Shown: positions 19,097 to 64,000 of the stretch, in pieces
How the letters are laid out: every line of letters starts with the position of its first letter
Numbering within the stretch: position 1 is the stretch's first letter
DNA from: Eledone cirrhosa
Lineage: Eukaryota
Assembly (NCBI GenBank): GCA_964016885.1
Contig: CAXHJY010000565.1
Location: forward strand, 124,634 to 188,633
Direction: 5' to 3'
Length of the DNA stretch: 64,000 nucleotides
The notes under the pieces: model-generated
The model's database searches: none
Told to the model about the DNA's origin: nothing
What the model saw: only the letters and a program-made list of their open reading frames with translations
Made by a program: the position numbers and the translations under genes

Positions 19097-19153
<57 letters not shown>

Positions 19154-19158
<5 letters not shown>

Positions 19159-19472
19159 TGTATGTATAGTATATTTGGCAATATACCGTATGTTTAATTT
19201 AAAACATTTTAAAGACCTTGCGCTATCATTTTTAAAGTAGTGCTTTATTCGGCAAAAGAAGAGAGAGAACCTGACAGATTCTGTTTCACGCTGTTGGCGA
19301 TCCTCAGAGAATTGCCGAAAATTATAGAGGTTGGATTCTTATAGAATCCCAGTAATAATCAGAAGCTGATTATACAGAGCGATTGCCGGTCCAGCAAAAG
19401 TTAAAAATTAGGATTGGTGCTCTGAAATAGCGATGTATACATGAATGTATGTATAGTATATTTGGCAATATA
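19154..19472 (-). mobile_element. Retrozyme-like monomer (~287-bp unit plus terminal redundancy), diverged relative of the 310-bp array
   Basis: Direct repeat atgaatgtatgtatagtatatttggcaatata at both ends; shares ttgccggtcc, tgctctgaaatagcgat and aaacatttt.aagacct blocks with the 310-bp unit. Confidence 0.75.
19248..19319 (-). ncRNA. Type I hammerhead ribozyme
   Basis: Minus strand: ttcggcaattct CTGAGGA tcgc caaca gcgt GAAA cagaatctg TC aggtt...ttgccgaa. Confidence 0.75.
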
Positions 19473-19779
19473 TAGTATATTTGTACACAGATTCAACATG
19501 GTTCCTTGTTCCCTCCCCTTCTCTCTCTCCTTCTCTCTCTCTCACCCTTTCTCTCTTTCTCTCTTTCTCTCTCTCTCACTCTCTCTCTCTTCTTTTTCTT
19601 CTTTTTGATACGTTCAGAATCCATTTGGTTAGTCGTGTGTACATTGTTGTCATCTTAGTCATATATGTTCATGAACTGGCTTCTGATCTCCCGGTCACAG
19701 TACTGACTAGTTTGCAATATAGTTGATGTTTGAAATGTTCCGCTGTTATCTTGCATGTTATTCTATTTGTTTGATTAAA

Positions 19780-24278: not shown

Positions 24279-24722
24279 TGAGTTGAGATGGAGGGTCTGT
24301 GGTTTTTCTCACATCTGGTTGGTCTCTAAATGTTACTTGTTTTATATGGAAAAAGTGGCTCGAAATGCCAGGTTTTTCGAGAAGTAATTTGATTGGTTTG
24401 TCAATAATTATAATAAATTTCGAGCCAGTTCGCGTTACAATAGTTCTTCAAATAAGAGGGGGGGGTTGTCACAGGTTGTTTTTTCATATATGAGTGTTTG
24501 AATTTCTTTTTACTTGAAAAAAGGAGGCTCACGAAGGCTTTTTTTTTTGGTTGGTTATAAATGAAATTTGGCTGTCACGTGAACAAGTTTTCATTACATT
24601 TTTGCGCCCTTATTTGGAAAACTATTCTGTAGTCTTTATAGTGAATGTTATGACAATGGAGAGATAGTGGTCAAGAGAAAAGGGATTGGGAGAAATGTTC
24701 TGGTTCAGTGAATATGGTCAGC

Positions 24723-24935
24723 TCGGGGACTGCGATGGGTACAAAAGCCGCTCCAACTTATGCCAACTTAGTCATGGCATACTTAGAAGTCCAGATATAT
24801 GAACAGTCCAAATCAAAATACGGATTGAACTTCCACAAATATTTATCAGAGAATTGGAAACGCTACTTGGATGATTGCCTCATTCTTTGGTCCCACACAC
24901 TCGACCAACTGAAGGATTTCAAAAACAATATATAA
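24723..24935 (+). pseudogene. Penelope-like RT fragment (motifs B-C), a different family from the 57-64 kb PLEs
   Basis: GTAMGTKAAPTYANLVMAYLE...[12 protein letters not shown]. Confidence 0.8.
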
Positions 24936-24965: not shown

Positions 24966-25847
<882 letters not shown>

Positions 25848-26664
25848 GTGGGAAATGAAATATCGTTTCATTTTTTCCGTTTATCGTTTTCGGTGCACCC
25901 GGCCGATTAACCCACTCGATATGCAAATTGGGCTACTCAGCCGTTAATATGCATAAGGTAAGTATATACGTTCAACAATCTGGCAGGAAGGTATACGTTG
26001 CTGACGATAGCTAACAAGCTTGAAACTAGTACAGCGTTCCTTTGTCAGTGTTGAACAAACGAGCAACGGTGGTTGCTAGACACTACGGCTTAATACGGGA
26101 TGTTTGTTTACAAACACACCGAGCATTATAATAAATGTTCGGTGAATCCATGCGTGCATATATATATGTGTGCATGTATGTATATATGTATATGCATACT
26201 ACTGTACGTCGGTATACATATATGTATGTACGTGTACATACTTATATTTAAGTAACAGCCGTACTAAGAGTGGGAAATGAAATATCGTTTCATTTTTTCC
26301 GTCTATCGTTTTCGGTGCACCCTGCCGATTAACCCACTCGATATGCAAATTGGGTTATTCAGCCGTTAATATGCATAAGGTAAGTATATACGTTCAACAA
26401 TCTGGCAGGAAAGTATACGTTGCTGACGATAGCTAACAAGCTTGAAATTAGTACAGCGTTCCTTTGTCAGTGTTGAACAAACGAGCAACGGTGGTTGCTA
26501 GACACTACGGCTTAATACGGGATGTTTGTTTACAAACACACCGAGCATTATAATAAATGTTCGGTGAATCCATACGTGCATATATATATGTGTGCATGTA
26601 TGTATATATGTATATGCATACTACTGTACGTCGGTATACATATATGTATGTACGTGTACATACT

Positions 26665-26668
<4 letters not shown>
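25848..26668 (+). mobile_element. Retrozyme-like tandem dimer, 422-bp unit, one HHR per unit
   Basis: agtgggaaatgaaatatcg repeats at ~25848 and ~26269; between (TA)n tracts; distantly similar to the 466-bp unit. Confidence 0.85.
25995..26037 (+). ncRNA. Type I hammerhead ribozyme (second copy at 26417-26459)
   Basis: acgttg CTGACGA t agct aaca agct t GAAA cta GTA cagcgt; palindromic ACTAGT. Confidence 0.85.
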
Positions 26669-26744
<76 letters not shown>

Positions 26745-26747
26745 AAT

Positions 26748-28161
<1,414 letters not shown>

Positions 28162-29182: not shown

Positions 29183-29530
29183 TTTGAGTTTATGTTGGTT
29201 GTATACCAACACCTCAGTATGCAGGCTGGAGCACTCGACGAAGAGCGCAGGTTGGTTTGGTTACTCCGGAGTAGTGTAAAATAAAGTTAAATAAAAGTCA
29301 AATGATTAAAATTTAGCTTCGTTTATTACTGCTATATATATTTCAGTGACAGCCATCTTTGGCTGTGACCTCTTCAGGCAGTTTAAATTAGTATGGTATA
29401 GACAAGTACATATGTTATTTTCCAAACTGCCTGAAGAGGTCACAGCCAAAGATGGCTGTCACTGAAATATATATAGCAGTGATAAACGAAGTTAAATTTT
29501 AATCATTTGACTTTTATTTAACTTTATTTT
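29183..29530. mobile_element. Foldback with an intact HHR in each arm (29328-29382 minus, 29426-29480 plus)
   Basis: Arms 29278-29385 and 29423-29530; actgc CTGAAGA ggtcacagcca aaga tggctgtcact GAAA tatata TA gcagt. Confidence 0.85.
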
Positions 29531-29893: not shown

Positions 29894-30253
29894 AGTATAA
29901 AGAAAAAGAGATGAAATCGAAAATGCAACGGGAGTCTTATTTTTTTTTTTAAATATATATATTTATTTGGTTCCTTTACCGGTTTCGCAGTTCTTCTGCT
30001 TTTCAAAAGTAGAGTTGAGATGGAGGGTCTGTGGTTTTTCTCACATCTGAGGAACCACAGACCCTCCATCTCAACTCTACTTTTGAAAAGCAGAAGAACT
30101 GCGAAACCGGTAAAGGAACCAAATAAATATATATATTTTTTTTTAAAATAAGACTCCAGTTGCATTTTCGATTTCATCTCTTTTTCTTTATACTTTCACT
30201 CGTGTAGGACACTTCGGTTATTTTTCAATTTGTAAAAGAAATCTCACTTTCTA
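29894..30253. mobile_element. Foldback of the U3-A8 HHR family with an HHR in each arm (29974-30009 minus, 30080-30115 plus)
   Basis: Arms 29894-30048 and 30053-30253; ctt TTGAAAA gcagaagaactgc GAAA ccgg TA aag. Confidence 0.85.
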
Positions 30254-30278
30254 ATATATAAGTATATATATATAAATA

Positions 30279-30376
<98 letters not shown>

Positions 30377-30451
30377 TATATATATATAAATATATATATA
30401 TATAAATATATATATATATAAATATATATATATAGATAAATATATATATAT

Positions 30452-33248
30452 ATTGGAATAAATGCTCTGAAATAGCGATATATATGTGAATATAGACATA
30501 GAATATTCGAAAATATTCTGTATGTTTATAATAAACATTTTGAAGACCTAATCGCTATAGAATAGAATACGTCACGTATTACAATTAGATTCTCGATAAA
30601 AGCAAGGGAAGTAATCTACGCGTTTCATTCTTGTTAGAAATCTTCAGGACTACATATCCAGTGCTTTTATCGAGAATGACACAGCTAGAGACTTATAGAA
30701 TACTTAGCTGTGTACAGGAACTGGTTTGAAAGAGCGGTTGCCGGTCCGGCAGAAATTAGGAATTGGAATAAATGCTCTGAAATAGCGATATATATGTGAA
30801 TATAGACATAGAATATTCGAAAATATTCTGTATGTTTATAATAAACATTTTGAAGACCTAATCGCTATAGAATAGAATACGTCACGTATTACAATTAGAT
30901 TCTCGATAAAGGCAAGGGAAGTAATCTACGCGTTTCATTCTTGTTAGAAATCTTCAGGACTACATATCCAGTGCTTTTATCGAGAATGACACAGCTAGAG
31001 ACTTATAGAATACTTAGCTGTGTACAGGAACTGGTTTGAAAGAGCGGTTGCCGGTCCGGCAGAAATTAGAAATTGGAATAAATGCTCTGAAATAGCGATA
31101 TATATGTGAATATAGACATAGAATATTCGAAAATATTCTGTATGTTTATAATAAACATTTTGAAGACCTAATCGCTATAGAATAGAATACGTCACGTATT
31201 ACAATTAGATTCTCGATAAAAGCAAGGGAAGTAATCTACGCGTTTCATTCTTGTTAGAAATCTTCAGGACTACATATCCAGTGCTTTTATCGAGAATGAC
31301 ACAGCTAGAGACTTATAGAATACTTAGCTGTGTACAGGAACTGGTTTGAAAGAGCGGTTGCCGGTCCGGCAGAAATTAGAAATTGGAATAAATGCTCTGA
31401 AATAGCGATATATATGTGAATATAGACATAGAATATTCGAAAATATTCTGTATGTTTATAATAAACATTTTGAAGACCTAATCGCTATAGAATAGAATAC
31501 GTCACGTATTACAATTAGATTCTCGATAAAAGCAAGGGAAGTAATCTACGCGTTTCATTCTTGTTAGAAATCTTCAGGACTACATATCCAGTGCTTTTAT
31601 CGAGAATGACACAGCTAGAGACTATTCTATAGCGATTAGGTCTTCAAAATGTTTATTATAAACATACAGAATATTTTCGAATATTCTATGTCTATATTCA
31701 CATATATATCGCTATTTCAGAGCATTTATTCCAATTTCTAATTTCTGCCGGACCGGCAACCGCTCTTTCAAACCAGTTCCTGTACACAGCTAAGTATTCT
31801 ATAAGTCTCTAGCTGTGTCATTCTCGATAAAAGCACTGGATATGTAGTCCTGAAGATTTCTAACAAGAATGAAACGCGTAGATTACTTCCCTTGCTTTTA
31901 TCGAGAATCTAATTGTAATACGTGACGTATTCTATTCTATAGCGATTAGGTCTTCAAAATGTTTATTATAAACATACAGAATATTTTCGAATATTCTATG
32001 TCTATATTCACATATATATCGCTATTTCAGAGCATTTATTCCAATTTCTAATTTCTGCCGGACCGGCAACCGCTCTTTCAAACCAGTTCCTGTACACAGC
32101 TAAGTATTCTATAAGTCTCTAGCTGTGTCATTCTCGATAAAAGCACTGGATATGTAGTCCTGAAGATTTCTAACAAGAATGAAACGCGTAGATTACTTCC
32201 CTTGCTTTTATCGAGAATCTAATTGTAATACGTGACGTATTCTATTCTATAGCGATTAGGTCTTCAAAATGTTTATTATAAACATACAGAATATTTTCGA
32301 ATATTCTATGTCTATATTCACATATATATCGCTATTTCAGAGCATTTATTCCAATTTCTAATTTCTGCCGGACCGGCAACCGCTCTTTCAAACCAGTTCC
32401 TGTACACAGCTAAGTATTCTATAAGTCTCTAGCTGTGTCATTCTCGATAAAAGCACTGGATATGTAGTCCTGAAGATTTCTAACAAGAATGAAACGCGTA
32501 GATTACTTCCCTTGCTTTTATCGAGAATCTAATTGTAATACGTGACGTATTCTATTCTGTAGCGATTAGGTCTTCAAAATGTTTATTATAAACATACAGA
32601 ATATTTTCGAATATTCTATGTCTATATTCACATATATATCGCTATTTCAGAGCATTTATTCCAATTTCTAATTTCTGCCGGACCGGCAACCGCTCTTTCA
32701 AACCAGTTCCTGTACACAGCTAAGTATTCTATAAGTCTCTAGCTGTGTCATTCTCGATAAAAGCACTGGATATGTAGTCCTGAAGATTTCTAACAAGAAT
32801 GAAACGCGTAGATTACTTCCCTTGCTTTTATCGAGAATCTAATTGTAATACGTGACGTATTCTATTCTATAGCGATTAGGTCTTCAAAATGTTTATTATA
32901 AACATACAGAATATTTTCGAATATTCTATGTCTATATTCACATATATATCGCTATTTCAGAGCATTTATTCCAATTTCTAATTTCTGCCGGACCGGCAAC
33001 CGCTCTTTCAAACCAGTTCCTGTACACAGCTAAGTATTCTATAAGTCTCTAGCTGTGTCATTCTCGATAAAAGCACTGGATATGTAGTCCTGAAGATTTC
33101 TAACAAGAATGAAACGCGTAGATTACTTCCCTTGCTTTTATCGAGAATCTAATTGTAATACGTGACGTATTCTATTCTATAGCGATTAGGTCTTCAAAAT
33201 GTTTATTATAAACATACAGAATATTTTCGAATATTCTATGTCTATATT

Positions 33249-33259
<11 letters not shown>
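30452..33259. mobile_element. Retrozyme-like array, 310-bp unit: ~3.8 units (HHR on minus) then ~5.3 inverted units (HHR on plus)
   Basis: Period 310 (30453, 30763, 31073, 31383); inversion junction at 31622-31623; nine HHRs; (TA)n flanks. Confidence 0.92.
31844..31886 (+). ncRNA. Type I hammerhead of the 310-bp unit (plus copies also at 32154, 32464, 32774, 33084; minus copies at 30611, 30921, 31231, 31541)
   Basis: gtagtc CTGAAGA t ttct aaca agaa t GAAA cgc GTA gattac; palindromic ACGCGT; helix I extended by a perfect 16-bp stem attctcgataaaagca/tgcttttatcgagaat. Confidence 0.9.
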
Positions 33260-33304
<45 letters not shown>

Positions 33305-33354
33305 TATATAAATATATATATATAAGTATATATATATAAATATATATATATAAG

Positions 33355-33386
<32 letters not shown>

Positions 33387-33452
33387 AATATTTATATATA
33401 TATATATATAAATATATCTATATATATAAGTATATAAATATATATATATAAG

Positions 33453-33484
<32 letters not shown>

Positions 33485-33589
33485 ACAATATAAATATATA
33501 TATATATATATATAACAATATAAATATATATATATATAAGTATATAAATATATATATATATATATATATAAGTATATAAATATATATAT

Positions 33590-36500
33590 ATAAAAACAAA
33601 TAACGAAACGAAATTAAATTTCGTTTCGTTTGTAACTCACTTTTGTATGACTGACGCTTAAACAATTAAATTAAAAATGTACATCCACATATGTATACTG
33701 AAATACTAGTATGCATATGAATACACACACGTGTACATATGTAGATGTACCGAGTTTTTCACTGGACACTTTACTGTGAGTGTCCAGCTATTCTGTATGT
33801 AAACACACAGACAAACCGGTTTTTAGAGTCATACTGGTTTTCGAGGAAACACCTTTCCTCTATTCTCCAGAAAGCCAGACAAGGAATATTGGACTAGTTT
33901 CGATGTTGTTACATCTCATCAGCAATATTTACCTATCTTCCGGCCTTTCTAGAGAATCGTAAAAGCACATATCGTTATATGCTTTTTCTATGAAAATTAG
34001 TAGTGGGCAGACTAATTTGCATAGAGCGTGAGTACGTACCGGTTCAGCGGAGACGATAAAAACAAATAACGAAACGAAATTAAATTTCGTTTCGTTTGTA
34101 ACTCACTTTTGTATGACTGACGCTTAAACAATTAAATTAAAAATGTACATCCACATATGTATACTGAAATACTAGTATGCATATGAATACACACACGTGT
34201 ACATATGTAGATGTACCGAGTTTTTCACTGGACACTTTACTGTGAGTGTCCAGCTATTCTGTATGTAAACACACAGACAAACCGGTTTTTAGAGTCATAC
34301 TGGTTTTCGAGGAAACACCTTTCCTCTATTCTCCAGAAAGCCAGACAAGGAATATTGGACTAGTTTCGATGTTGTTACATCTCATCAGCAATATTTACCT
34401 ATCTTCCGGCCTTTCTAGAGAATCGTAAAAGCACATATCGTTATATGCTTTTTCTATGAAAATTAGTAGTGGGCAGACTAATTTGCATAGAGCGTGAGTA
34501 CGTACCGGTTCAGCGGAGACGATAAAAACAAATAACGAAACGAAATTAAATTTCGTTTCGTTTGTAACTCACTTTTGTATGACTGACGCTTAAACAATTA
34601 AATTAAAAATGTACATCCACATATGTATACTGAAATACTAGTATGCATATGAATACACACACGTGTACATATGTAGATGTACCGAGTTTTTCACTGGACA
34701 CTTTACTGTGAGTGTCCAGCTATTCTGTATGTAAACACACAGACAAACCGGTTTTTAGAGTCATACTGGTTTTCGAGGAAACACCTTTCCTCTATTCTCC
34801 AGAAAGCCAGACAAGGAATATTGGACTAGTTTCGATGTTGTTACATCTCATCAGCAATATTTACCTATCTTCCGGCCTTTCTAGAGAATCGTAAAAGCAC
34901 ATATCGTTATATGCTTTTTCTATGAAAATTAGTAGTGGGCAGACTAATTTGCATAGAGCGTGAGTACGTACCGGTTCAGCGGAGACGATAAAAACAAATA
35001 ACGAAACGAAATTAAATTTCGTTTCGTTTGTAACTCACTTTTGTATGACTGACGCTTAAACAATTAAATTAAAAATGTACATCCACATATGTATACTGAA
35101 ATACTAGTATGCATATGAATACACACACGTGTACATATGTAGATGTACCGAGTTTTTCACTGGACACTTTACTGTGAGTGTCCAGCTATTCTGTATGTAA
35201 ACACACAGACAAACCGGTTTTTAGAGTCATACTGGTTTTCGAGGAAACACCTTTCCTCTATTCTCCAGAAAGCCAGACAAGGAATATTGGACTAGTTTCG
35301 ATGTTGTTACATCTCATCAGCAATATTTACCTATCTTCCGGCCTTTCTAGAGAATCGTAAAAGCACATATCGTTATATGCTTTTTCTATGAAAATTAGTA
35401 GTGGGCAGACTAATTTGCATAGAGCGTGAGTACGTACCGGTTCAGCGGAGACGATAAAAACAAATAACGAAACGAAATTAAATTTCGTTTCGTTTGTAAC
35501 TCACTTTTGTATGACTGACGCTTAAACAATTAAATTAAAAATGTACATCCACATATGTATACTGAAATACTAGTATGCATATGAATACACACACGTGTAC
35601 ATATGTAGATGTACCGAGTTTTTCACTGGACACTTTACTGTGAGTGTCCAGCTATTCTGTATGTAAACACACAGACAAACCGGTTTTTAGAGTCATACTG
35701 GTTTTCGAGGAAACACCTTTCCTCTATTCTCCAGAAAGCCAGACAAGGAATATTGGACTAGTTTCGATGTTGTTACATCTCATCAGCAATATTTACCTAT
35801 CTTCCGGCCTTTCTAGAGAATCGTAAAAGCACATATCGTTATATGCTTTTTCTATGAAAATTAGTAGTGGGCAGACTAATTTGCATAGAGCGTGAGTACG
35901 TACCGGTTCAGCGGAGACGATAAAAACAAATAACGAAACGAAATTAAATTTCGTTTCGTTTGTAACTCACTTTTGTATGACTGACGCTTAAACAATTAAA
36001 TTAAAAATGTACATCCACATATGTATACTGAAATACTAGTATGCATATGAATACACACACGTGTACATATGTAGATGTACCGAGTTTTTCACTGGACACT
36101 TTACTGTGAGTGTCCAGCTATTCTGTATGTAAACACACAGACAAACCGGTTTTTAGAGTCATACTGGTTTTCGAGGAAACACCTTTCCTCTATTCTCCAG
36201 AAAGCCAGACAAGGAATATTGGACTAGTTTCGATGTTGTTACATCTCATCAGCAATATTTACCTATCTTCCGGCCTTTCTAGAGAATCGTAAAAGCACAT
36301 ATCGTTATATGCTTTTTCTATGAAAATTAGTAGTGGGCAGACTAATTTGCATAGAGCGTGAGTACGTACCGGTTCAGCGGAGACGATAAAAACAAATAAC
36401 GAAACGAAATTAAATTTCGTTTCGTTTGTAACTCACTTTTGTATGACTGACGCTTAAACAATTAAATTAAAAATGTACATCCACATATGTATACTGAAAT

Positions 36501-39500
36501 ACTAGTATGCATATGAATACACACACGTGTACATATGTAGATGTACCGAGTTTTTCACTGGACACTTTACTGTGAGTGTCCAGCTATTCTGTATGTAAAC
36601 ACACAGACAAACCGGTTTTTAGAGTCATACTGGTTTTCGAGGAAACACCTTTCCTCTATTCTCCAGAAAGCCAGACAAGGAATATTGGACTAGTTTCGAT
36701 GTTGTTACATCTCATCAGCAATATTTACCTATCTTCCGGCCTTTCTAGAGAATCGTAAAAGCACATATCGTTATATGCTTTTTCTATGAAAATTAGTAGT
36801 GGGCAGACTAATTTGCATAGAGCGTGAGTACGTACCGGTTCAGCGGAGACGATAAAAACAAATAACGAAACGAAATTAAATTTCGTTTCGTTTGTAACTC
36901 ACTTTTGTATGACTGACGCTTAAACAATTAAATTAAAAATGTACATCCACATATGTATACTGAAATACTAGTATGCATATGAATACACACACGTGTACAT
37001 ATGTAGATGTACCGAGTTTTTCACTGGACACTTTACTGTGAGTGTCCAGCTATTCTGTATGTAAACACACAGACAAACCGGTTTTTAGAGTCATACTGGT
37101 TTTCGAGGAAACACCTTTCCTCTATTCTCCAGAAAGCCAGACAAGGAATATTGGACTAGTTTCGATGTTGTTACATCTCATCAGCAATATTTACCTATCT
37201 TCCGGCCTTTCTAGAGAATCGTAAAAGCACATATCGTTATATGCTTTTTCTATGAAAATTAGTAGTGGGCAGACTAATTTGCATAGAGCGTGAGTACGTA
37301 CCGGTTCAGCGGAGACGATAAAAACAAATAACGAAACGAAATTAAATTTCGTTTCGTTTGTAACTCACTTTTGTATGACTGACGCTTAAACAATTAAATT
37401 AAAAATGTACATCCACATATGTATACTGAAATACTAGTATGCATATGAATACACACACGTGTACATATGTAGATGTACCGAGTTTTTCACTGGACACTTT
37501 ACTGTGAGTGTCCAGCTATTCTGTATGTAAACACACAGACAAACCGGTTTTTAGAGTCATACTGGTTTTCGAGGAAACACCTTTCCTCTATTCTCCAGAA
37601 AGCCAGACAAGGAATATTGGACTAGTTTCGATGTTGTTACATCTCATCAGCAATATTTACCTATCTTCCGGCCTTTCTAGAGAATCGTAAAAGCACATAT
37701 CGTTATATGCTTTTTCTATGAAAATTAGTAGTGGGCAGACTAATTTGCATAGAGCGTGAGTACGTACCGGTTCAGCGGAGACGATAAAAACAAATAACGA
37801 AACGAAATTAAATTTCGTTTCGTTTGTAACTCACTTTTGTATGACTGACGCTTAAACAATTAAATTAAAAATGTGTGTTTACATACAGAATAGCTGGACA
37901 CTCACAGTAAAGTGTCCAGTGAAAAACTCGGTACATCTACATATGTACACGTGTGTGTATTCATATGCATACTAGTATTTCAGTATACATATGTGGATGT
38001 ACATTTTTAATTTAATTGTTTAAGCGTCAGTCATACAAAAGTGAGTTACAAACGAAACGAAATTTAATTTCGTTTCGTTATTTGTTTTTATCGTCTCCGC
38101 TGAACCGGTACGTACTCACGCTCTATGCAAATTAGTCTGCCCACTACTAATTTTCATAGAAAAAGCATATAACGATATGTGCTTTTACGATTCTCTAGAA
38201 AGGCCGGAAGATAGGTAAATATTGCTGATGAGATGTAACAACATCGAAACTAGTCCAATATTCCTTGTCTGGCTTTCTGGAGAATAGAGGAAAGGTGTTT
38301 CCTCGAAAACCAGTATGACTCTAAAAACCGGTTTGTCTGTGTGTTTACATACAGAATAGCTGGACACTCACAGTAAAGTGTCCAGTGAAAAACTCGGTAC
38401 ATCTACATATGTACACGTGTGTGTATTCATATGCATACTAGTATTTCAGTATACATATGTGGATGTACATTTTTAATTTAATTGTTTAAGCGTCAGTCAT
38501 ACAAAAGTGAGTTACAAACGAAACGAAATTTAATTTCGTTTCGTTATTTGTTTTTATCGTCTCCGCTGAACCGGTACGTACTCACGCTCTATGCAAATTA
38601 GTCTGCCCACTACTAATTTTCATAGAAAAAGCATATAACGATATGTGCTTTTACGATTCTCTAGAAAGGCCGGAAGATAGGTAAATATTGCTGATGAGAT
38701 GTAACAACATCGAAACTAGTCCAATATTCCTTGTCTGGCTTTCTGGAGAATAGAGGAAAGGTGTTTCCTCGAAAACCAGTATGACTCTAAAAACCGGTTT
38801 GTCTGTGTGTTTACATACAGAATAGCTGGACACTCACAGTAAAGTGTCCAGTGAAAAACTCGGTACATCTACATATGTACACGTGTGTGTATTCATATGC
38901 ATACTAGTATTTCAGTATACATATGTGGATGTACATTTTTAATTTAATTGTTTAAGCGTCAGTCATACAAAAGTGAGTTACAAACGAAACGAAATTTAAT
39001 TTCGTTTCGTTATTTGTTTTTATCGTCTCCGCTGAACCGGTACGTACTCACGCTCTATGCAAATTAGTCTGCCCACTACTAATTTTCATAGAAAAAGCAT
39101 ATAACGATATGTGCTTTTACGATTCTCTAGAAAGGCCGGAAGATAGGTAAATATTGCTGATGAGATGTAACAACATCGAAACTAGTCCAATATTCCTTGT
39201 CTGGCTTTCTGGAGAATAGAGGAAAGGTGTTTCCTCGAAAACCAGTATGACTCTAAAAACCGGTTTGTCTGTGTGTTTACATACAGAATAGCTGGACACT
39301 CACAGTAAAGTGTCCAGTGAAAAACTCGGTACATCTACATATGTACACGTGTGTGTATTCATATGCATACTAGTATTTCAGTATACATATGTGGATGTAC
39401 ATTTTTAATTTAATTGTTTAAGCGTCAGTCATACAAAAGTGAGTTACAAACGAAACGAAATTTAATTTCGTTTCGTTATTTGTTTTTATCGTCTCCGCTG

Positions 39501-41295
39501 AACCGGTACGTACTCACGCTCTATGCAAATTAGTCTGCCCACTACTAATTTTCATAGAAAAAGCATATAACGATATGTGCTTTTACGATTCTCTAGAAAG
39601 GCCGGAAGATAGGTAAATATTGCTGATGAGATGTAACAACATCGAAACTAGTCCAATATTCCTTGTCTGGCTTTCTGGAGAATAGAGGAAAGGTGTTTCC
39701 TCGAAAACCAGTATGACTCTAAAAACCGGTTTGTCTGTGTGTTTACATACAGAATAGCTGGACACTCACAGTAAAGTGTCCAGTGAAAAACTCGGTACAT
39801 CTACATATGTACACGTGTGTGTATTCATATGCATACTAGTATTTCAGTATACATATGTGGATGTACATTTTTAATTTAATTGTTTAAGCGTCAGTCATAC
39901 AAAAGTGAGTTACAAACGAAACGAAATTTAATTTCGTTTCGTTATTTGTTTTTATCGTCTCCGCTGAACCGGTACGTACTCACGCTCTATGCAAATTAGT
40001 CTGCCCACTACTAATTTTCATAGAAAAAGCATATAACGATATGTGCTTTTACGATTCTCTAGAAAGGCCGGAAGATAGGTAAATATTGCTGATGAGATGT
40101 AACAACATCGAAACTAGTCCAATATTCCTTGTCTGGCTTTCTGGAGAATAGAGGAAAGGTGTTTCCTCGAAAACCAGTATGACTCTAAAAACCGGTTTGT
40201 CTGTGTGTTTACATACAGAATAGCTGGACACTCACAGTAAAGTGTCCAGTGAAAAACTCGGTACATCTACATATGTACACGTGTGTGTATTCATATGCAT
40301 ACTAGTATTTCAGTATACATATGTGGATGTACATTTTTAATTTAATTGTTTAAGCGTCAGTCATACAAAAGTGAGTTACAAACGAAACGAAATTTAATTT
40401 CGTTTCGTTATTTGTTTTTATCGTCTCCGCTGAACCGGTACGTACTCACGCTCTATGCAAATTAGTCTGCCCACTACTAATTTTCATAGAAAAAGCATAT
40501 AACGATATGTGCTTTTACGATTCTCTAGAAAGGCCGGAAGATAGGTAAATATTGCTGATGAGATGTAACAACATCGAAACTAGTCCAATATTCCTTGTCT
40601 GGCTTTCTGGAGAATAGAGGAAAGGTGTTTCCTCGAAAACCAGTATGACTCTAAAAACCGGTTTGTCTGTGTGTTTACATACAGAATAGCTGGACACTCA
40701 CAGTAAAGTGTCCAGTGAAAAACTCGGTACATCTACATATGTACACGTGTGTGTATTCATATGCATACTAGTATTTCAGTATACATATGTGGATGTACAT
40801 TTTTAATTTAATTGTTTAAGCGTCAGTCATACAAAAGTGAGTTACAAACGAAACGAAATTTAATTTCGTTTCGTTATTTGTTTTTATCGTCTCCGCTGAA
40901 CCGGTACGTACTCACGCTCTATGCAAATTAGTCTGCCCACTACTAATTTTCATAGAAAAAGCATATAACGATATGTGCTTTTACGATTCTCTAGAAAGGC
41001 CGGAAGATAGGTAAATATTGCTGATGAGATGTAACAACATCGAAACTAGTCCAATATTCCTTGTCTGGCTTTCTGGAGAATAGAGGAAAGGTGTTTCCTC
41101 GAAAACCAGTATGACTCTAAAAACCGGTTTGTCTGTGTGTTTACATACAGAATAGCTGGACACTCACAGTAAAGTGTCCAGTGAAAAACTCGGTACATCT
41201 ACATATGTACACGTGTGTGTATTCATATGCATACTAGTATTTCAGTATACATATGTGGATGTACATTTTTAATTTAATTGTTTTTTAATTTAATT
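33590..41295. mobile_element. Retrozyme-like array, 466-bp unit: ~9.2 units (HHR on minus) then ~7.3 inverted units (HHR on plus)
   Basis: Period 466 (the ORF track repeats 9 times on plus and 7 on minus); junction TGT at 37872-37874; 16 HHRs; (TA)n flanks. Confidence 0.93.
38218..38262 (+). ncRNA. Type I hammerhead of the 466-bp unit (every 466 bp; first minus copy 33885-33929)
   Basis: aatattg CTGATGA gatgt aaca acatc GAAA cta GTC caatatt; canonical core, GUC site at 38255, palindromic ACTAGT. Confidence 0.93.
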
Positions 41296-56991: not shown

Positions 56992-57077
56992 GCAAAAGTT
57001 TTATTTAAAATTGTTGGGTTACAACGAGTAAATATTTTATAACTGATATAAAAGCACTCAACAAGTTTTGGAGTAGA

Positions 57078-58715
57078 TTGATTGCATCATCAAAATCTGA
57101 CCTGGGTAAACTTAGCAAAAACATTCTAGACAGGGTGATACAGCAAATTAAAAACTTGAATTGTTTACCTAACTTGAGCTTGTGGAAGGGAACTGGAGAG
57201 GTCGTTGAGTGGTTTAAAGAAATTAAATATAACAATAATAATAAATTTATTCAACTAGATATTGCTAACTACTATTCGTCTATTACCCCTAATCTACTAA
57301 ATAAGGCACTAAATTACGCATTCAAACATACAGACCTAACTAGCAATGAAATGCACATTATATTATCGGCAAGGGAAAACATTGATAGAATTTAATAACC
57401 AACTATGGACTAGGGCAGATAGAGATAATAATTTCGACATTACTATGGGATCATCAGACTCAGCTCAGGTAACGGACCTTGTGGGCCTATTTATATAATT
57501 AATTCGCTGCATAGGAAAATACCCGGTGTTACCGGAGGATTATATCGAGATGACATGCTTTTACTTATTGAAAATAATAACTCTGAACTAAATAGAAAAA
57601 GAAAACAAATTATACAATTTTTTAATTACCTTAATCTAAAAATAGAAATTGAGAATAACCAGTAGAATAGTCAATTTCCTAGATGTAACATTAAATCTCA
57701 ACACATGTCTTCACTATCCATTTCACAAGTTAAATGAAAACTTGAATTATGTCAGTTTTAGCTCTAATCACCCCAGATCTGTCAAAAATACTATAGTGAA
57801 CTCTGTTCAAAAACGTATCTCTAGAATCTCATCTAATAAAAATATTTTCGACGAAAAAGCCCAGTATTACAATGAAGCGTTAGCTAGAGCAGGATATAGT
57901 GATAAAATTATGTACATCGATAATAGACAAACTACCCAAAAATAACAACAATTTTAATTACGGTAACAACTTTAACAACTATAATAGAAAGCATTACAAT
58001 AATTCCAAAAACCAGAAAAGGAATAGAACTAGAAATATAATATGGTTTGCCCCCCCCCCCCTTCTCACTAAACATTAAAACCCACATCGCTAAACTATTT
58101 TTTAATGCTCTTGACAAACGCTTCCCTAGAACACATAAGTATCACTCAATTTTCAATAGACATACTATAAAATTAACATACTCGTCCACCAAAAATTTAG
58201 CACAAAATATTAATAGAATAAATAATAGGAATCTAAAACCTAGCCAAAATACCGAAAATAGCCTAAACAATATTCAAGTAAACAACTGTAACTGTAGAGA
58301 TAGATCTAAATGTCCGCTAAATAACAATTGCTTAGTTAAAAATATAATATACAACTGTAATGTTAAAACTGACTTAAATTCTTTTAATTATGTTGGTTCC
58401 ACCTCGACAGAATTTAAACTTCGCTATAATAATCACAAGAATTCTTTCACGGATCCAAATAAAAAATCTTCAACATCGCTGTCAGGGTTACTCTGGCAAC
58501 TTAAGCATGATAAAATTGGATATTCGATGGTTTGGAATATAGTCTCAAAAGGGATTCCTTTTAATTCCTCTTCTGAGACATGTGACCTCTGCGCGGAGGA
58601 GATATTCTTTATACTAAAATCTAAAAATTCCATTAATTTACGGACCAATTTATTCAGCTGCTGCAGACATAGATTGAACTCAACTTTTAAATATAAATAT
58701 AAATTTAAAATGTAG
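57078..58715 (+). pseudogene. PLE RT and GIY-YIG endonuclease, frameshifted
   Basis: Pieces 57078-57395, 57649-57945 and 58047-58715 are colinear and highly similar to the 62323-63990 ORF. Confidence 0.9.
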
Positions 58716-61264: not shown

Positions 61265-64000
61265 GCTCAAGTATTAATGTAAGGGAGATATATATAGAGA
61301 GAAAAAATATAGAGAGAGGAAAAAATAGCGAGAGAAAAAATTTTAAAATAGCCAGATATATTCGGAGGCGTAAAAACCCTATGTTTTAATGTATTAGTAT
61401 TTATAAAACTTACACTATATTGTAAATATCAGTATTCCTGAATGAGACAAGTATCCATAGTGTGTGAAAATTAATTATCTTATGTTTAGTTTTAAAAAAA
61501 TTCATATGTTTATGTGACAGCTACAAACATCCATGCGAATCCACATGATTCACTCTGCAAACTCTAGGTTCACGGAAAACATTCTCAATGTGGTATAAAA
61601 ATTTGAGCATACATATATGTGTATTATTATTCCTGTCTTTACTCTACAAGATTATCTATCAAGCAGAAATAGAGAGCAGATTTCAATATACTAATAAAAA
61701 TATATATCAGAAACAAAACTAAAAAAATAAAAAGATAACAATAATAATAATAAGTAAAAATAAGTAATAATAAAATAGAAAGCTAAAAAAATATTACGAA
61801 AGAATATTACATAATAAAAATATTACATATTAAAAATATTACGTATTAAAAAATATTACGTATTAAAAATTTACATATTAAAGATATTAAAAATAAAAAT
61901 AAAAAATAAAAAATAATTATAAAATACTACAATAATAAAAAATAAAAATAAAAATAAACCACAAAGATCAACCCTTCAAAGTTAATTGACAATATATTGC
62001 CAAGTTCATTACAAGACAAAGCCAAAAATTATCTATCAAATTACATCTAGCAAAGATCATTTCAAAAAGTTTATGATGTCCAAATTGGTCTACATATGTT
62101 CTTATATTTAATATAGAAGTTTATCTAGTGTAAGGTTTATTCAAAAAATTTGGAGCATCAGCTTTTAGGGTAGCTTAATTTTTCATGGGGAATGTTTAAA
62201 TAAAAATAAAATAAAAATAAAAATAAACAATAAAAAAAAGAATAAAAAGAAGGAATCAAAAATTTAGGAATCAAAAATTTATCGGCTAGTTTCCCATATA
62301 AATATAAATCAAACTAAATATACTACATTTTAAATTTAAATTTATATTTAAACGTTGAGTTTAATCTATGTTTGCAACAACTGAATAAATTTGTCCGTAG
62401 GTTAACGGAATTTTTAGATTTTAGTATAAAGAATATCTCCTCTGCGCAGAGGTCACATGTCTCAGAGGATGAATTAAAAGGAATCCCTCTTGAGACTATA
62501 TTCCAAGCCGTCGAATATCTAACGTTATCTAGCTTAAGTTGCCAGAGTACGCCTGATAGTGCCGTTGAAGATTTTTTACTTGGATCTGTGAAAGAATTCT
62601 TGTGGTTATTATAGCGAAGTTTAAATTCCGTCGATGTGGAACCGACGTAGTTAAAAGAATTAGAGTCAGTATTAACATTACAATTGTATACTATATTTTT
62701 AACTAAGCAGTTGTTATTTAACGGACATTTAGATCTATCTCTACAGTTACATTTGTTAACTTGTATATTATTTATGCTATTATCACTAGGTTTTAAGTTC
62801 CTATTATTTATTCTATTAATATTTTGTGCTAAATTTTTGGTGGATGAGTAGGTTAATTTAATTGTATGCCTATTGAAAATTGAGTGATACCTATGTGTTC
62901 TAGGGAAGCGATTATCAAGAGCTTTGAAAAATAATTTAGCGATGTGGGTTTTAATGTTTAGTGAGAAAGGGGGGGCAAACCAAATTATGTTCCTAGTTCT
63001 ATTTCTTTTTTGGCCTTTGGAATTATTGTAATGCTTTCTATTATAGTTGTTAATGTTGTTGCCGTAATTAAAAAAGTTGTTACTTTGTTTAGTTTGTCTA
63101 TCATTATCTATGTACACAATCTTATCAGCATATCCTGCCCTAGCTAATGCTTCATTATAGTATTGGGCCTTTTCGTCGAAAATCTTTCTATTCGACGAGA
63201 TCCTAGAGATACGTTTTTGAACTGAGTTTACTATAGTGTTTTTGACAGATCTGGGGTGGTTAGAGTTAAAGTTGACATAGTTTAAGTTTTCATTCAACTT
63301 GTGAAAAGGATAGTGGAGACATGTGTTGAGATTTAATGTTATATCTAGGAAATTGACTATTCTATGGTTGTTCTCAATTTCTATTTTAAGGTTAAAGTAA
63401 TTAAAAAATTTTGTAATTTGTTTACATTTTCTATTTAGTTCAGGGTTATTATTATTAATAAGTAAAAGCATGTCATCCCTATATAAACCTCCGGTAGTAC
63501 CAGGTATTTTCCTATGTAGCGAATTGATTAAAAATAAGCCCACAAGGTCAGTTACCTGAGCTGAGTCGGAAGATCCCATAGTTATGTCAAAATTGCTATC
63601 TCTATCTGCTCTGGTCCATAATTTGTCATTAAATTCTATCAAAGTTTTCCTAGCCGATAATATAATATGCATTTCTTTGCTAGTTAGGTCAGTATGTTTG
63701 AATGCGTAATTTAGTGCCTTATTTAGTAGACTAGGGGTAATAGAAGAATAATAGTTAGCTATATCAAGTTGAATAAACCTATTATTATTGTTATATTTAA
63801 TTTGCCTAAACCACTCAACAACCTCTCCAGTTCCCTTCCACAAGCTCAGGTTAGATACACAATCCAAGTTCTTAATTTGCTGTATCACCCTGTCAAGAAT
63901 GTTTTTGCTTAATTTGCCCAGGTCCGATTTTGAAGGTGCGATCAATCTAACTGGCAGGTCATTTTCAAAATTCCTCTTGTGGTCCTTCATATTGATCTTC
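60800..64000 (-). mobile_element. Penelope-like element running off the window; pLTR with a degenerate HHR at ~60840-60905
   Basis: Intact ORF; 3' UTR homologous to the plus-strand copy; 3' end abuts (TA)n. Confidence 0.9.
62323..64000 (-). CDS. PLE polyprotein: reverse transcriptase and C-terminal GIY-YIG endonuclease (possibly Hydra clade); N-terminus outside the window
   Basis: FIQLDIANYYSSI, FDITMGSSDSAQ, GLYRDDML, NFLDITL, SNHP, CNCRDRSKCPLNNNC, IVYNC..YVGST..FKLRYNNH, CDLCAEE; no stops over at least 555 aa. Confidence 0.92.
   Translation of the reverse strand, partial: KINMKDHKRNFENDLPVRLIAPSKSDLGKLSKNILDRVIQQIKNLDCVSNLSLWKGTGEVVEWFRQIKYNNNNRFIQLDIANYYSSITPSLLNKALNYAFKHTDLTSKEMHIILSARKTLIEFNDKLWTRADRDSNFDITMGSSDSAQVTDLVGLFLINSLHRKIPGTTGGLYRDDMLLLINNNNPELNRKCKQITKFFNYFNLKIEIENNHRIVNFLDITLNLNTCLHYPFHKLNENLNYVNFNSNHPRSVKNTIVNSVQKRISRISSNRKIFDEKAQYYNEALARAGYADKIVYIDNDRQTKQSNNFFNYGNNINNYNRKHYNNSKGQKRNRTRNIIWFAPPFSLNIKTHIAKLFFKALDNRFPRTHRYHSIFNRHTIKLTYSSTKNLAQNINRINNRNLKPSDNSINNIQVNKCNCRDRSKCPLNNNCLVKNIVYNCNVNTDSNSFNYVGSTSTEFKLRYNNHKNSFTDPSKKSSTALSGVLWQLKLDNVRYSTAWNIVSRGIPFNSSSETCDLCAEEIFFILKSKNSVNLRTNLFSCCKHRLNSTFKYKFKFKM

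Follow-up and report, generated by a model that had tools for sequence, protein, structure and literature searches.

The 64,000-nucleotide stretch of the Eledone cirrhosa genome analysed here (the window; assembly GCA_964016885.1, contig CAXHJY010000565.1, positions 124,634 to 188,633 of the forward strand) contains, at 30452..33259, an array of a 310-bp unit that carries a hammerhead ribozyme motif. The array is composed of two opposed arms. The left arm (30452..31623, minus strand) is 1172 bp long, or 3.78 units, and holds four hammerheads with predicted cuts after 31547, 31237, 30927 and 30617; the right arm (31622..33259, plus strand) is 1638 bp long, or 5.28 units, and holds five, with predicted cuts after 31880, 32190, 32500, 32810 and 33120. 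Throughout, unit position 1 is 31881, and the outer end of an arm is called short or long according to whether it falls early or late in the 310-bp unit. The left arm has its inner end at unit position 234 and its outer end, a long end, at 165, while the right arm begins at position 52 and reaches a short end at 131-139. The left-arm end therefore bears a 35-nt "tail" (unit positions 131-165; 30452..30486, minus strand), which the right-arm end lacks beyond 131-139. At the head-to-head junction (31622..31623), a 2-nt microhomology, CT, joins unit positions 234 and 52; a fold-back palindrome at this point was considered and ruled out, as the arms stop at differing unit positions. Both flanks (left, 30254..30451; right, 33260..33589, the latter common to a neighbouring array of a 466-bp unit) are (TA)n-type targets, within which a target-site duplication is unreadable. 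A preliminary description of this DNA had noted some nine units with about three substitutions, a central inversion and a (TA)n target, all of which hold: the substitutions relative to the unit total exactly three (30760, 30911 and 32559) at a period of 310. Its single span of 30452..33259 resolves into the two arms, and is certain only to C33251, as the final eight bases (ATATATAT) may just as well belong to the target.

One complete type I hammerhead was delineated by motif match and fold at 31820..31908 (plus strand), and its motif (GUAGUC CUGAAGA U UUCU-AACA-AGAA U GAAA CGC GUA GAUUAC) is found in 9/9 units, four in the left arm and five in the right. Helix I consists of 6 bp on a GGA/UCC stack with a bulge, followed by a 16-bp extension; the core is CUGAAGA...GAAA; helix II has 4 bp, a closing U.U mismatch and an AACA loop; and helix III is a 2-bp palindrome (ACGCGU). 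The GUA triplet ends at A31880, the predicted cut site. With its extension, the hammerhead folds as expected (z -6.85, none of 200 shuffles being equally stable), and the fold of a circular 310-nt monomer has a z of -4.5. The bare core motif turns up in 46 of 2000 shuffles of the unit. The motif and helix I architecture given in the preliminary description are thus reproduced, although the perfect 16-bp extension that it assigned to each unit is present in eight of the nine, the ninth being altered by the change at 30911. A search of Rfam did not recognise the 310-bp hammerhead at E<=10; the hammerhead of the 466-bp unit matched HH9 with 38.9 bits, under the gathering score of 52.

The 310-bp unit has a GC content of about 0.34 and no long terminal repeat, its longest ATG frame is 30 aa, and no open reading frame (ORF) with reverse transcriptase (RT) plus GIY-YIG lies inside it. 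A small ORF of 30 aa whose ATG is at unit position 79 was dropped, since by eye a sister family is out of frame there. Animal non-LTR retrozymes, in the portions of the accounts available, are tandem, non-coding units of 150-450 bp with low GC and a type I hammerhead each, present in thousands of copies (PMC7229834, PMC7761336). The 310-bp family resembles them in unit size, lack of coding capacity, low GC, a hammerhead per unit, copy number and co-occurrence with Penelope-like elements (PLEs), and so agrees with retrozymes in the features that can be checked in sequence. Its hammerhead also shares a U.U at the base of helix II with the axolotl motif HHR_Amex2, as far as that motif is described in the accessible text (PMC7229834). 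A related terminal repeat of a PLE (pLTR) was not found.

Across the 3.0 Gb genome, the window haplotype has 100% matches on contigs C1-C5, and a similarity search flagged 169 candidate places, of which the 39 that were scored gave 237 matches, most of them 99-100% identical. Exact patterns counted genome-wide yield at least 13,096 hammerhead copies (834 of the window form and 12,262 of CUGAUGA forms) and 1046 exact junctions of the long end with TA; given the fraction of ends matching this junction pattern, we estimate some 1,500 insertions. Units differ from one another by only about 0.04%. We examined 172 loci: the window, the 38 best matches, 97 long-end picks taken in order along contig C1, and 36 short-end picks. 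These data support a young, dispersed, mobile, ORF-less retrozyme-type family, separate from the 466-bp family as had been proposed from the window. Indeed, the two units share only a 12-nt match (E 0.18) outside the hammerheads, both of which have the AACA loop II.

Two arms are present in 152/172 loci, always minus then plus, such that 5' ends face inward and 3' ends outward; the remaining 20 have a single arm, some owing to the edge of the fetched stretch or a run of N. Measured from the predicted cut, outer ends lie 130-139 nt (short) or 165-172 nt (long) downstream, 130/165 being the commonest pair, and 314/316 fall in TA runs. Among two-armed loci with both ends resolved, 144/145 pair one short with one long end, and none pairs short with short or long with long. 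The rule holds in 30/31 loci not chosen by an end, 85/85 anchored on the long end and 29/29 anchored on the short end; the count leaves seven two-armed loci unresolved and includes L033, whose long end is two bases from the edge. In L044, the script called a short/long pair, yet one end sits at position 74. The inner ends, by contrast to the outer, are spread across the whole unit, with 5/304 within 6 nt of the cut compared to 11.8 expected, indicating no run-off at the cut. Arms are at least two units long in 196/253 cases. Inserted bases are present at 47 of the 142 junctions; the other 95 are overlapping or blunt, with microhomology of at least 2 nt at 52 of them, against 18% expected. Taken together, fixed paired ends, an inverted 5'-truncated arm, a tail and a (TA)n target read as the signature of a PLE. 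Two loci have foreign sequence between their arms (L180:1545-1818, about 270 nt; L199:4029-4084, 54 nt), possibly captured by a template jump to another RNA or DNA.

Haplotypes were compared between arms at 89 loci where both arms cover the unit, leaving out the first 38, which are best matches to the window haplotype. The arms share a haplotype in 85/89 loci, representing 31 haplotypes, whereas 5000 shuffles gave a mean of 11.5 and a maximum of 24. Two of the four discordant loci are single changes in short arms; the others are L109, where the haplotype switches after the second turn, at the same turn in both arms, and L082. A private substitution, meaning one seen once among 172 of an estimated 1,500 loci, is present in every unit of both arms at 16/89 loci (18%); in L115 it occupies 22/22 units, and L072 has a 2-bp deletion in all units. 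One-off changes, counted with L041 and L044 omitted for a gap and poor alignment, occur at 0.126 per unit, a rate at which, per round, about 12% of insertions made from single-unit circles would acquire a new fixed change. These changes are mostly specific to one arm, 104 being unshared and 6 shared at the same turn. The private changes in all units suggest a monomer bottleneck. At another locus, L207, variants in a 21-unit arm recur with a period of about 9 units, which suggests either an assembly error or that part of a long array was duplicated later.

The changes that have become fixed also bear on the ribozyme. None of 37 distinct fixed changes breaks its core or pairing, compared to 41/183 one-off changes (Fisher p 3e-4; mutation-spectrum-matched P 9e-4). 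Six fixed changes in paired regions preserve pairing, and the remaining ones within the ribozyme are at position 7, at the U.U (restoring A-U) or in loop II. Thus, the copies that spread keep the ribozyme fold, and the ribozyme is under purifying selection, in a test that pools core and helix positions and takes catalysis and structure together.

How such arrays may arise is suggested by work on the green anole, in which the purified PLE protein, predicted as a dimer, nicks and extends both strands of AT-rich DNA in vitro and initiates cDNA synthesis at two internal RNA positions, one on either side of the tail (PMC11167929). We infer that the 35-nt tail of the window array likewise lies between two reverse-transcription start sites (cf. 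PMC11167929). It is our favoured and rather likely reading that the array is one insertion of a non-LTR retrozyme, probably copied by a PLE from both cut strands around a 310-nt RNA circle. Arrays would be transcribed, the hammerhead would cut the RNA after GUA, and the monomers would be ligated into circles. A PLE protein dimer would then nick both (TA)n strands, and each 3'-OH would prime at one of two fixed sites on the RNA, with each cDNA copy running several turns round the circle until the two cDNA ends anneal at a microhomology and are filled in. Priming from both cut strands on a template of the ribozyme strand would give the observed minus-then-plus order. The specific proposal of an asymmetric PLE dimer, whose two active sites take two fixed starts on one circular RNA and both roll from a double-strand cut, has in our judgement an even chance of being right.

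The helper is most likely a Neptune-type PLE, as a candidate class. The genome contains an active, very young Neptune PLE with a 777-aa stop-to-stop frame and copies 98-99% alike (loci L119-L148, for example L142), whose short and long ends are 37 nt apart and paired in 6/6 loci with both ends in view; a second Neptune family also has a tail of about 37 nt. The 3' region of the active family exceeds 1.3 kb, and the hammerhead core in its end repeat has degenerated, reading TTGAAAA in place of CTGANGA. Pfam returned a weak RVT_1 match on a Neptune fragment and no match for the GIY-YIG pieces. No Neptune-like frame was seen at the arm junctions of 15 single-armed loci, L041 and two gapped loci inspected. 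In L069, an arm and a Neptune-like frame are separated by an unresolved stretch, and the tie of the frame to the arm is not established. A search for the conserved tail motif followed by an unusual base gave 187 matches; the 30 inspected are all members of the 310-bp family or non-coding sisters.

Several observations weigh against a PLE copying a ribozyme-made circle. The U.U-closed helix II may cut weakly, judging by analogy with an axolotl motif closed in the same way, for which the available text gives monomer cleavage of 22% in 1 h (PMC7229834), and cleavage may require dimers, as in axolotl motifs; in the accessible part of a Xenopus study, 8/9 elements assayed did not cleave (bioRxiv 10.64898/2026.07.22.740005). 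The green anole protein used uncleaved RNA in vitro, with the hammerhead dispensable (PMC11167929). The 310-bp unit scored no better than shuffles against the end regions of two Neptune families, most of 36,964 first-look candidates lying outside this comparison, and no helper with an end sequence matching the 310-bp family was found among the families compared. A shared haplotype is also expected if each cell expresses one source locus, and by itself is no proof of one template molecule; the sampling behind the term private counts on the same side. L082 has a genuine arm mismatch over four turns, pointing to two templates. In L091, L192 and L109, a variant or a haplotype switch falls at the same turn in both arms, so that at these loci the template exceeded one unit in length or one arm served as the source of the other; the switch in L109 suggests that the template was multi-unit and mixed, or that both enzymes jumped together. 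Finally, 11/169 loci (L111 also omitted), mostly in long arms, have variants repeated in some but not all units, a pattern indicative of oligomeric templates or later duplication of DNA. The same-turn variants, together with a period-2 variant in L039 and the finding that unprocessed RNA is the main substrate of the anole PLE in vitro (PMC11167929), are what favour, as the usual template, an oligomeric circle or a long, uncut, linear RNA of several units, which the same machinery would read twice from the same two starts. We consider this unlikely. A linear multimer would pass unit differences to both arms, yet the unshared one-off changes far outnumber the six that are shared; it could not fix a new change in every unit, as happened in 16/89 loci; and it offers no reason for selection on the ribozyme core (0/37).

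Less probable still is minisatellite-like growth of an initially short PLE-type insertion, through slippage or unequal crossing-over, as put forward in the available text on Xenopus (bioRxiv 10.64898/2026.07.22.740005). The long arms of L022, L038, L042, L071, L072, L095, L180 and L207 do contain repeated variant blocks, but the 11 loci with repeated partial variants stand against 183 single changes, and multi-unit arms are the rule despite a unit divergence of about 0.04%. Both arms would need to have grown at almost every locus, and any seed longer than one unit still requires a circular or multimeric template. That the 310-bp unit is merely the pLTR of a coding PLE, an outcome raised in the preliminary description and seen at none of the 172 loci, we regard as very improbable. 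It would account for the PLE-type ends and type I hammerhead of the unit, and it has a parallel in the Xenopus retrozymes related to pLTRs in the part of that study seen (bioRxiv 10.64898/2026.07.22.740005) and a possible instance in L069, where only the unresolved stretch intervenes. It is at odds with the 152/172 loci made of two unit arms, with the inspected single-armed and gapped junctions, where no Neptune-like coding is joined to the inner ends, and with the non-coding nature of the 30 inspected tail-motif matches. Least credible of all is an artefactual origin of the inversions, by misassembly or fold-back. Repeats in TA, whether inverted or tandem, assemble poorly and the window is on a small contig (C592); yet the arms differ in fixed outer site and inner stop, the flanks are not mirrored, the pattern repeats on chromosome-sized contigs, and contigs from a public run contain inversion joints of the same family, although the run may be the genome's own source.

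Six public runs from four studies were listed as containing the family, none of them from RNA, which says nothing either way on expression. In each of three runs labelled as other organisms, a single contig of 340 nt was present, with a depth of 10-26 and haplotypes frequent in this genome. Trace host DNA would look alike, and horizontal transfer was not inferred. Among the contigs listed for three runs of one sample, beyond which there are 284 further pieces, none bridged the window junction.

Other elements in the window are related to this system. The 466-bp array (33590-41283) comprises inverted arms of 9.2 and 7.3 units in (TA)n, and its unit is related to a 422-bp hammerhead dimer at 25847-26669. 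Its outer ends fall at unit positions 302 and about 228-232, leaving a longer tail. The preliminary description had placed both families on the same mobilisation pathway; they do share the same kind of PLE-type insertion, but the end spacing is about 35 nt in the 310-bp family and about 70-74 nt in the 466-bp family, and the helper element may differ. An older sister retrozyme family (2720 first-look candidates; copies about 85% alike, loci L149-L178) is 64-83% alike to the 310-bp family in local alignments and has the same two outer end sites; a relic of it lies at 19146-19485 (minus strand). Within the sister-family tail, a conserved block, ATCGCTATTTCAGAGC, is a candidate protein-recognition element. 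A minimal hammerhead directly before this block in L170 was discarded, as it looks like a chance junction with another element. Of the PLE remnants, 24699-24932 (plus strand) is part of a further Neptune-type RT with 59% identity to the active Neptune family, and 29185-29530, 26950-27270 and 29900-30260 are stubs of PLE end repeats, short and inverted, within (TA)n; in many such families at the loci retrieved, the two ends are separated by 70-100 nt. At 57009-58715 (plus strand) and about 62600-63800 (minus strand) lie frames for a PLE-like RT and GIY-YIG that look Naiad- or Hydra-like.

L1 twin priming offers a comparison: both target strands prime on one RNA and the inversion is joined via microhomology, the primers copying non-overlapping parts, one of them starting at poly(A). 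In the 310-bp arrays, by contrast, the two starts are separated by 35 nt and both arms repeatedly copy one sequence. Closer are the insertions of endonuclease-bearing PLEs, described in the available portions of two accounts as having an inverted 5'-truncated copy and a tail of 30-40 bp at one end (PMC3846280, PMC8557442). The 310-bp arrays share with them the head-to-head arm, the one-end tail, the (TA)n or AT-rich target and the two internal starts, and differ in having no ORF and multi-unit copies in both arms. The PLE tail is called optional in those portions (PMC3846280, PMC8557442), whereas the ends of the 310-bp family are paired one-to-one; in vitro, the PLE start site showed no strand difference (PMC11167929), whereas here there is one arm per end site. 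MRC1 of Chlamydomonas, a non-autonomous Chlamys element, is a non-coding PLE dependant with multicopy head-to-tail insertions, according to the accessible text (PMC8557442). Chlamys dependants are there said generally to match their autonomous family at the 3' end, a match not found for the 310-bp family, which has a canonical hammerhead in every unit, unlike Chlamys dependants such as MRC1 as described in that text.

The retrozyme class and its link to PLEs are already published, and the worth of the 310-bp family lies in its paired-end footprint. As far as the available text goes, that link was argued from co-occurrence and pLTR similarity, with later unequal crossover favoured (Li, Clavereau and Pollet 2026, bioRxiv 10.64898/2026.07.22.740005), and tandem cDNA synthesis on a circle by a PLE or LINE enzyme was a proposal of Cervera and de la Pena 2020 (PMC7229834). 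Animal retrozymes are described in the portions available as head-to-tail arrays only, whereas the 310-bp family is two-armed and inverted with paired fixed ends; the haplotype evidence for a monomer bottleneck likewise distinguishes it from the accessible retrozyme accounts compared. In the literature covered, which takes in few subscription papers, no description was found of retrozymes inserted as two arms or of ends that pair obligately. The origin of tandem and inverted PLE structures and tails is listed among the tasks still open (PMC8557442), and how animal retrozymes integrate has been proposed without demonstration (PMC7229834; bioRxiv 10.64898/2026.07.22.740005), in the parts of these sources seen. 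With more than 1,000 young, near-identical events, strict end pairing and base-level start sites, the 310-bp family makes the model directly testable. If the model is true, a PLE enzyme able to copy round small circles and insert the product at a double-strand cut would be of interest for RNA-templated insertion tools. Were the asymmetric dimer correct, every insertion would be an obligate pair of short and long ends; the PLE tail, the inverted repeat and the tandem form of retrozymes would be explained by one mechanism; and ribozyme cleavage would be selected because it makes the circle.
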